DNA of 64,000 nt, taken from Eubacteriales bacterium (GTDB taxonomy: Bacteria; Bacillota; Clostridia; Oscillospirales; CAG-272). Shown piece by piece: positions 58,769 to 58,975 of this stretch. The notes under the pieces were generated by a model, which saw only the letters and a list, made by a program, of their open reading frames with translations, was not told the DNA's origin and searched no databases. How positions within the stretch are numbered: position 1 is the first letter of the stretch; each line of letters starts with the position of its first letter. Where the stretch lies: the NCBI GenBank assembly GCA_045649045.1, contig JAZRPF010000051.1:14471-78470 (forward strand), read 5' to 3'. Both the position numbers and the translations under genes were made by a program.

Positions 58769-58975
58769 TTGACAAATCCTCTAAATTGTGGTATAATAAG
58801 CGTGCTACACAATTTTATACTCTATTTCTATCTAAGTGGCTTTACGTTGGTAAAAACGTAGGCTTTGCTTGTCATATCCACTTAGATGTGAAATTGTGTA
58901 GCAACAATGAGCGAAACTGCGTTTTTCGGTGCGTAGTTTCAGCTACGCACCTTTTTATTTTAAGGAGGAAAGACT
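58769..58975 (+). promoter_or_regulatory. Consensus promoter plus ~170-nt structured leader with intrinsic terminator (copy 2 of a conserved leader RNA)
   Basis: - Promoter: TTGACA (58769-58774), 17-nt spacer, TGgTATAAT (58789-58797).
- P1: 58804-58815 pairs with 58891-58902.
- P2: 58830-58839 pairs with 58878-58887.
- Apical hairpin: TACGTT-GGTAAA-AACGTA, 58843-58860.
- Terminator: 58928-58960.
- RBS: AGGAGG, 58963-58968. Confidence 0.65.

Follow-up and report, generated by a model that had tools for sequence, protein, structure and literature searches.

Bacterial attenuators of the successive-helix kind include the pyr leaders of Bacillus subtilis (PyrR) and the trp leader with its 1:2/2:3/3:4 scheme, and some terminator-controlling riboswitches combine a P1 stem with a pseudoknot joining a loop to the 3′ tail. 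In late control of the lambda type, the promoter PR′ gives a short constitutive transcript ahead of the terminator tR′ and the late genes, and Q gives read-through. The rplJL leader (L10(L12)4) is an attenuator with an anti-antiterminator, an antiterminator and a terminator (PMC4538822). At cwpV (Cdi1) of Clostridioides difficile, the promoter lies outside an invertible switch, an orientation-dependent terminator has been proposed, and 96% of the genomic DNA is in the OFF state (Emerson et al. 2009, PMC2784873). Here we analyse a leader that occurs twice in a stretch of 64,000 nucleotides from an Eubacteriales bacterium (contig JAZRPF010000051.1, positions 14,471 to 78,470; hereafter the window), each time in front of a gene for a Cys-repeat lipoprotein: copy 2 at 58769-58975 on the forward strand and copy 1 at 33820-34091 on the minus strand. 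The leader is a member of a large RNA family that is absent from Rfam and is found in gut Clostridia and their phages. Its pairings are conserved and covary, its promoter has a fixed position and it is linked to the gene downstream; we think it probable that it acts in cis as an attenuator.

At the gathering threshold, an Rfam 15 scan of the whole window returned tRNA only, and permissive scans of both leaders gave chance matches only (E 0.4-8, 12-20 bits, against gathering values of 46-83). Families thus without a match include T-box, c-di-GMP-I/II, SAM, TPP, FMN, purine and ANTAR targets. This agrees with the original prediction, made from copy 2, in which the element could be matched to no familiar riboswitch or leader class, and literature searches found no described motif resembling it. 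Homologue scans used a two-block DNA pattern for which no chance match is expected in the window. In viral contigs it found one true relative (L001). In a chromosomal scan with one genome per species at least 118 loci matched the pattern and, after removal of chance matches, about 70 loci among the matches listed share the architecture; across the scans, L002-L005 were set aside as chance matches, as were 37 pattern matches outside Clostridia. Almost all come from metagenome-assembled genomes (MAGs) labelled Clostridia, Eubacteriales, Oscillospiraceae, Acutalibacteraceae or Ruminococcaceae, with single loci from Christensenellaceae, Lachnospiraceae and mislabelled MAGs, and their sources are mostly human and ruminant guts. 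A second viral scan that was agnostic as to orientation added at least 120 further loci, a phage-borne subfamily (L131-L250, IMG/VR) which is recognised end to end by a profile hidden Markov model (HMM) of the chromosomal set (E about 1e-18). Since the same architecture, with strong covariation, is shared by about 70 chromosomal loci and more than 115 phage contigs, the resemblance between the two window copies reflects more than a local duplication.

Family members fall into three architectures: short (143-155 nt, including copy 2), mid (162-179 nt) and long (188-233 nt, including copy 1). When the fetched loci were searched with the profile HMM, six more copies lacking the exact pattern came to light, several of them as tandem units. 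Two leader units stand in tandem before one gene at L015, L039, L051 and L077, and eight fetched sequences, the window included, hold two copies. Unpaired AACAAU and UUGGU motifs are conserved in the family, the former being varied to GACAAT or AGCAAT (GCGACAAT, GCAGCAAT) in copies found without the search pattern. What looks like a truncated member was seen in L055 (6380-6470), which keeps the P1 3′ strand, linker, region C and terminator but lacks both the interior and the 5′ strand of P1; a TTGACA is present about 20 nt upstream.

The elements that had been read from copy 2, namely a promoter, helices P1 and P2, an apical hairpin, a 3′ block, a terminator and a ribosome-binding site (RBS), are all present. 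P1 is formed by GCTACACAATTT (region a, 58804-58815) and AAATTGTGTAGC (region b, 58891-58902), and was recovered by a repeat finder as 58803-58815 with 58891-58903 at 100% complementarity, so that its strands are also a left and a right inverted repeat. In copy 1 the strands are GCCACATAATTTA (34055-34043) and TAAATTGTGTGGC (33902-33890), this and all other features of copy 1 being on the minus strand and those of copy 2 on the forward strand. Inside P1 of copy 2, helix P2 (58830-58839 with 58878-58887), found both by folding and by the repeat finder, encloses the apical hairpin (TACGTT/AACGTA) and region B. The mechanism proposed below would use five regions besides P1. Region A, which would rival C for B, is the 5′ half of the apical hairpin (TACGTT, 58843-58848, in copy 2; GAATTTG, 33961-33955, followed by the loop, in copy 1). 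Region B (AAAAACGTAGGCTTTGCTTG, 58852-58871; in copy 1 AAAAATGCAAATTCC, 33952-33938) takes in the A-rich tract of the loop, the 3′ half of the hairpin and the next bases, and is the predicted anti-antiterminator strand that pairs with C. After P1 come a conserved unpaired linker (AACAAT, 58903-58908 and 33889-33884) and region C (GAGCGAAACTGCGTTTTT, 58909-58926; AGGAGTTTGCGTTTTT, 33883-33868), the conserved 3′ block ending in UGCGUUUUU, which would pair either with B or, as an antiterminator, with c; the block reads AACAAT..TGCGTTTTTCGG in copy 2, and TGCGTTTTTCGG is kept in copy 1. Regions c and d are the 5′ half of the terminator together with its 'loop', and the 3′ half. In copy 2 the intrinsic terminator (58928-58961) consists of GGTGCGTAG (c, 58928-58936), a loop, CTACGCACC (d, 58943-58951) and a T-run (58952-58961), the hairpin at 58928-58951 having -17.5 kcal/mol and being followed by TTTTTATTTT; in copy 1 it is GGGTGCGACTTC / GAGGTCACACCC (33866-33839, -18.9 kcal/mol) with a T-run at 33838-33831.

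In copy 1, where insertions separate the elements, the promoter, P1, the GGTAAAAA loop, GCAACAAT, the terminator and the RBS are all retained, and the compensatory changes in P1 and the apical stem that had been described for it are there. Both leaders fold better than their dinucleotide shuffles (z -6.6 and -6.7; none of 200 shuffles equal).

Pairs were counted on a gap-free core alignment of fixed windows with 58 distinct sequences. In P1, 94.8% of cells are paired, against 32-50% in slid-partner controls, and both sides have changed in 9 of 14 pairs; position 3 is UA in 34 sequences, CG in 15, GC in seven and AU in one, and positions 10-13 show three to six pair types each. The original reading of the leader as structured, conserved and covarying, with an intrinsic terminator at its end directly ahead of the RBS, was borne out. 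A second long helix, B:C, was found in addition. When C is paired with the whole interior, the optimal duplex has the same position in each of the 68 aligned loci, with 13-19 bp and -13 to -21 kcal/mol (-18.1 kcal/mol in copy 2; -18.4 kcal/mol and 15 contiguous pairs in copy 1). On the core alignment 90.2% of its cells are paired, and position 30/67 is AU in 29 sequences, GC in 13, UA in eight and CG in three. At the nine B:C pairs whose C base was fixed by the search pattern, B changes almost only by transitions that keep a G.U pair (58 wobble cells versus 10 non-pairs), and this tolerance of G.U shows selection on the RNA of this strand. Two-sided compensation is seen in copies that lie outside the pattern selection, such as the second copy in L077, whose C contains UACAUUUUU and whose B contains the matching AAAAAUGUA. 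Since B:C crosses P1, the two helices together would form a pseudoknot.

Which regions have evolved together was assessed by comparing the duplex energies of cognate pairs of regions with those of permuted pairs. P1 and the terminator c:d, used as controls, gave z -19.8 and z -19.0, and B:C gave z -9.6. Pairing of C with the terminator 5′ half and 'loop' (C:c) is also cognate-specific (-11.0 versus -8.6 kcal/mol, z -8.7, none of 2000 permutations as good), as is A:B (-8.5 versus -5.4 kcal/mol, z -11, with -2.3, -4.2 and -7.6 within subfamilies), A mimicking a different part of C in each architecture. No or very weak co-evolution was detected for a:c (z -0.9), B:b (z -0.6), B:c (z +1.6) and C:d (z +0.5), and a:C pairing amounts to only about -4.5 kcal/mol. 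In copy 2 the predicted antiterminator joins 58913-58921 of C to 58932-58940 of c (-12.0 kcal/mol), and in copy 1 it joins 33885-33878, that is C and linker bases, to 33859-33852 in c and the loop (-10.9 kcal/mol). The C:c pairing accounts both for the conserved terminator 'loop' CUUCGG, which pairs with CGGAG in C, and for the odd terminator loop TATTGA of copy 1, where AUAGGAGU pairs with ACUUCUAU. B:C, C:c and A:B are three covarying pairings that the original prediction did not contain; nor did it recognise P1 as an inverted repeat at which DNA occurs inverted in nature.

What the original prediction had proposed was a termination-controlling layout in which the 3′ strand of P1 pairs alternatively with the 3′ half of the terminator. 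Mutually exclusive terminator and antiterminator pairings are indeed present, but the supported switch is that of C between B and c. The complementarity of the P1 3′ strand to the terminator 3′ half is consistently placed and yet barely cognate-specific (-11.15 versus -10.59 kcal/mol, z -3.6), and its use would require a P1 of 14-16 bp to be melted; we therefore reject it as the main switch.

The position of the promoter relative to P1 is fixed. In copy 2 it spans 58769-58797, with a -35 TTGACA (58769-58774), a 17-nt spacer and a -10 TATAAT (58792-58797), and a consensus scan gave a 12/12 match with an extended TG (TGgTATAAT). Copy 1 has TTGACA at 34081-34076 and TATAAT at 34068-34063 (promoter 34081-34063). 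Exactly 6 nt separate the end of the -10 hexamer from the first G of P1 in 62 of the 68 chromosomal copies and, among the matches listed, in 119 of 119 phage-subfamily copies; of the 68 chromosomal promoters, 62 have the extended TG and 56 a -35 matching at least 4/6. From this spacing the RNA would begin at the first base of P1. Attenuation by a leader peptide was rejected in view of this presumed start and because no RBS was seen inside the leader. A miniature repeat element (MITE, Correia or REP-like) was also considered, since inverted repeats are present, but the orientation relative to the gene is constant and conservation reaches past the repeats to the promoter at its fixed 6 nt, the linker, C and the terminator.

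The overlapping, covarying A:B, B:C, C:c and c:d pairings suggest the layout of an attenuator, and a cis-acting attenuator with a ligand, protein or kinetic input is the reading that we consider probable. The leader would be a self-contained transcription unit, with a strong sigma-70 promoter whose RNA has the first base of P1 as its 5′ end. In the OFF state, B would pair with C and so free c for d, and RNA polymerase would stop at the U-tract, 15-40 nt before the start codon. In the ON state, B would be withheld, either in A:B or by being absent from the transcript, so that C could pair with c as antiterminator and the gene would be transcribed. The ON state would consist of two local hairpins that form first during transcription, and the OFF state would need a long-range strand exchange, which may be initiated where the A5 of the loop meets the U5 of C. 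Control of termination by these pairings is deduced from their arrangement, and some input would decide between A:B and B:C. A small ligand, an RNA-binding protein and folding kinetics at the U5 pause are candidates, a trans-acting factor or ligand being the most likely.

One could object that the leader is a constitutive cassette, in which promoter, 5′ stem and leaky terminator form a fixed expression module that has no conditional switch, gives RNA stabilisation, insulation or a set level of read-through, and has spread with accessory genes. It would suit such a module that promoter and element are inherited together at a constant distance, that they sit before very diverse accessory genes and phage cargo, and that no effector has been identified. 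Four mutually exclusive pairings (A:B, B:C, C:c and c:d) are nevertheless all kept by compensatory change, and a static module would not preserve both an antiterminator and an anti-antiterminator, so that we regard the cassette as quite improbable.

Several observations nonetheless weigh against the attenuator. The P1 sequence itself is at least 95% conserved at eight positions, which implies a role beyond that of a pure RNA helix and would fit a binding site for a protein or a recombinase. The core of C was fixed by the search pattern, so that its apparent invariance is biased, and the linker that would have to allow P1 and B:C to coexist sterically measures only 6-7 nt. In mean energy, the OFF state (B:C and c:d, about -33 kcal/mol) is far more stable at equilibrium than the ON state (A:B and C:c, about -20 kcal/mol), and read-through would thus need kinetics or a factor. 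Neither a common pathway or metabolite among 58 downstream proteins nor a recurring regulator gene beside the chromosomal loci was found.

Two features of a riboswitch are nevertheless present: a covarying structured domain (P1, A:B and B:C), and overlapping terminator and antiterminator pairings coupled to it. It is tempting to go further and to propose that the leader represents a class of attenuator not described before that responds to a signal, as a riboswitch for a small molecule or second messenger or as the RNA target of an antitermination protein. It would gate in a coordinated way the large and variable set of surface and envelope proteins of gut Oscillospirales, would have been captured by their phages to time the operon with the phage RNA polymerase, and would be locked ON genetically by rare inversion at the P1 repeats. 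We put this forward as a tentative possibility, and on balance a doubtful one.

The gene that follows copy 2 (RBS AAGGAGG, 58962-58968; ATG 58976, running to 59926) encodes a lipoprotein of 316 aa without a Pfam match, and that after copy 1 (33829-31627 including the RBS; ATG 33819) one of 730 aa with a match to Pfam Glug (7.4e-39). Both proteins are built of repeated H-x-x-GEW ... C ... C-x-x-C modules, the longer one having seven GLUG repeats besides, and in L054 and L097, too, the leader is followed by a similar Cys-repeat lipoprotein. Across the family, 49 of 63 scorable loci have a same-strand open reading frame (ORF) with an RBS that starts within 50 nt of the T-run (median 25 nt), and the loci that have no such near ORF are mostly at contig ends. 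The products are diverse and are for the most part envelope or surface proteins. Judged by eye from their N-termini, about 24 bear a signal typical of lipoproteins or of secretion and a further 13 or so are membrane or zinc-ribbon proteins, and a Pfam search of 58 downstream proteins returned most often the BspA-type leucine-rich repeat (LRR) family LRR_5 (eight), then zinc ribbon (four) and HTH (two), as well as GLUG, Big_2, dockerin, trypsin-like, VanZ and SPFH, many proteins having no match. The leader probably decides whether surface-protein genes or, in phages, an RNA-polymerase operon are transcribed.

This linkage to genes also bears on the idea that the element is a stand-alone, multicopy small RNA (sRNA) gene of 145-230 nt acting in trans, with the downstream gene a passenger of leakage. 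That the element is complete in itself, with a consensus promoter and a strong terminator, that eight fetched sequences hold two copies, and that the unpaired AACAAU and UUGGU are conserved could all be taken in that sense. The element is always co-oriented with an ORF, however, the RBS-bearing ORF begins a median of 25 nt after the T-run, and the terminator sequence is itself part of the covarying antiterminator, which is a feature of cis regulation. The chance that the element is a trans-acting sRNA is therefore slight.

As P1 is also an inverted repeat, the metagenome collection was searched for the interior in reverse orientation, and of the seven matches three (L124, L126 and L128) truly belong to the family. 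Their B:C pairing is obtained only when the interior is turned back (-15.5 and -16.0 versus -8.6 and -13.9 kcal/mol as found), and C as found pairs with c in an 11-bp hairpin. The interior of L124 and L126 is the exact reverse complement of the L132 type. That of L128 and L152 is the exact reverse complement of the L218 type, and the flanks of L152 and L218 are 100% identical in the part compared. The HMM matches the inverted loci in two pieces on opposite strands. Among the matches listed, the orientation-agnostic viral scan gave 111 canonical loci, one inverted locus (L152) and one palindromic chimera (L151), the latter a palindromic duplication with both an inverted and a canonical interior. 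A perfect palindrome, as if the interior stem had been 'corrected', is seen in L146; L146 and L151 are either products of template switching or assemblies of mixed orientations. In the chromosomal family, by contrast, all 68 aligned loci are canonical, including both window copies (70 canonical by a cruder test). Precise inversion between the P1 arms thus occurs in nature, in rare contigs of the phage subfamily and in at least two alleles, and it removes B from the transcript; its predicted outcome is a switch fixed in the ON state.

These alleles raise the question of whether the leader is a phase-variable, invertible attenuator of the cwpV type. A recombinase would flip the 60-150-bp segment between the P1 arms, exchanging B for a C-like strand, so that C pairs with c and the gene is ON in a minority of cells; DNA orientation would be the input and the RNA pairings its read-out. 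Besides the precise natural inversion at two different alleles, it has in its favour that one contig (L151) carries both orientations, that B′:C complementarity is kept in both inverted alleles though their C differs, and that P1 is conserved in sequence and not in pairing alone. The P1 arms are moreover 12-16-bp inverted repeats directly after a promoter, flanking a short segment before a gene, the targets are surface proteins (most often of the BspA-type LRR kind, 8 of 58), and the promoter outside the switch, the proposed orientation-dependent terminator and the 96% OFF genomic DNA of cwpV (PMC2784873) are in keeping with such a switch. What counts against it is that all of the 68 aligned chromosomal loci are canonical, that only one of about 116 unbiased phage contigs among the matches listed is inverted, that the exact repeat measures only about 12 bp in the phage subfamily, and that template-switch errors seem to be the origin of L146 and L151. 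Within 4-5 kb of the elements no recombinase gene is found repeatedly, although a distant master invertase might act. A resolvase-type serine recombinase does lie in the window (30916-31593, forward strand; PF00239, 3.5e-21), adjoining the 3′ end of the copy 1 lipoprotein gene, but it has no homologue in about 245 fetched loci and was rejected as a dedicated invertase. Finally, A:B covaries, which would be needless for a pure DNA switch, and tandem leaders and the position before a phage RNA-polymerase operon fit a graded or timed signal better. We consider a phase-variable switch unlikely, and prefer an attenuator with a ligand, protein or kinetic input.

In the phage subfamily the gene order is fixed: small early genes, the leader, membrane or lipoprotein cargo, an endonuclease (phrog_93), an exonuclease (phrog_3953) and the 906-aa phrog_4291 protein, the leader sitting directly before this operon (for example L213, about 1974-4692 nt downstream of P1). 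Neighbouring phage genes are mostly of unknown function. The phrog_4291 protein, annotated in PHROGs as 'RNA-dependent RNA polymerase', is read here as a YonO-like polymerase. Gating of a polymerase operon suggests a timed or signal-dependent input over rare stochastic flipping.

Public assemblies, when searched, gave no record of the window's lipoprotein or of its TyrRS. Some further features lie near the two window copies. About 340 nt upstream of the copy 2 promoter is a tRNA gene (58356-58429, forward strand, Rfam 67.3 bits), followed by terminator-like hairpins (58461-58517) and an inverted repeat (58619-58655). Just upstream of the copy 1 promoter, at 34137-34195 on the minus strand, are three direct repeats of AAAATCCAC, the last inside a hairpin with a T-run, which is probably the terminator of the upstream gene (34276-35304). 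A weak SprT-like protein is encoded at 30034-30711 (forward strand), beside the same 3′ end of the copy 1 lipoprotein gene as the resolvase.

If the attenuator model is correct, the family would add a widespread, uncatalogued regulatory RNA to abundant and poorly studied gut bacteria, and the surface proteins under its control, such as BspA-like LRR proteins and lipoproteins, would form a regulon that is likely to shape interactions with host and phage. Because the same element gates a phage operon with a YonO-like polymerase, it may be a device for the timing of lysis. The family would be a natural example of one RNA switch with two ways of being set, at the level of the RNA and through DNA inversion, and its clearly defined helices make the model directly testable with compensatory mutants.

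Of the systems with which the leader can be compared, cwpV is the nearest precedent for inversion. In both, the leader of a surface-protein gene contains a segment between inverted repeats with the promoter upstream of it, the action of an intrinsic terminator is proposed to depend on orientation, the OFF orientation dominates sequenced DNA, and the segment is found inverted in nature. Here, however, the terminator is fixed outside the segment, which gives only strand B, whereas the terminator of cwpV forms at the junction of left repeat and segment; the repeats measure 12-16 bp versus 21 bp and the segment 60-150 bp versus 195 bp; and no recombinase was identified and no inversion was observed in the chromosomal family. 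With lambda-type late control the phage subfamily shares a strong constitutive promoter, a leader of about 150-170 nt and a terminator between early genes and an operon, which, in this comparison, would be the one needed for late development, including the phrog_4291 polymerase. Unlike in lambda, no Q-like gene or binding site was identified, not every leader has a -10-like pause element in the initial transcript, and most family members are chromosomal leaders of single genes.

A resemblance to the pseudoknotted riboswitches with a P1 stem lies in the covarying 5′ domain closed by P1, in the peripheral stems that vary among the three architectures, in the predicted pseudoknot to the 3′ tail beside the expression platform, in tandem arrangements and in the presence of members in bacteria as well as phages. 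On the other hand, P1 and the helix of the pseudoknot far exceed the usual ligand-dependent helices in length and stability, the expression platform is as conserved as the 'aptamer', and there is no metabolite-linked gene set. From the pyr, rplJL and trp leaders the family differs in having no sequence or Rfam similarity to them, in an anti-antiterminator that is a long-range helix of 13-19 bp crossing a 14-16-bp P1 as a pseudoknot, in an RNA that would start exactly at P1, with no leader peptide and no known binding protein, and in a regulon of envelope and surface proteins and a phage operon instead of one pathway. It is nevertheless with these attenuators that the proposed mechanism agrees in its logic, since the leader likewise lies just 5′ of a gene and has overlapping helices, in which B:C would be the anti-antiterminator, C:c the antiterminator and c:d the terminator, with A:B as the upstream competitor.

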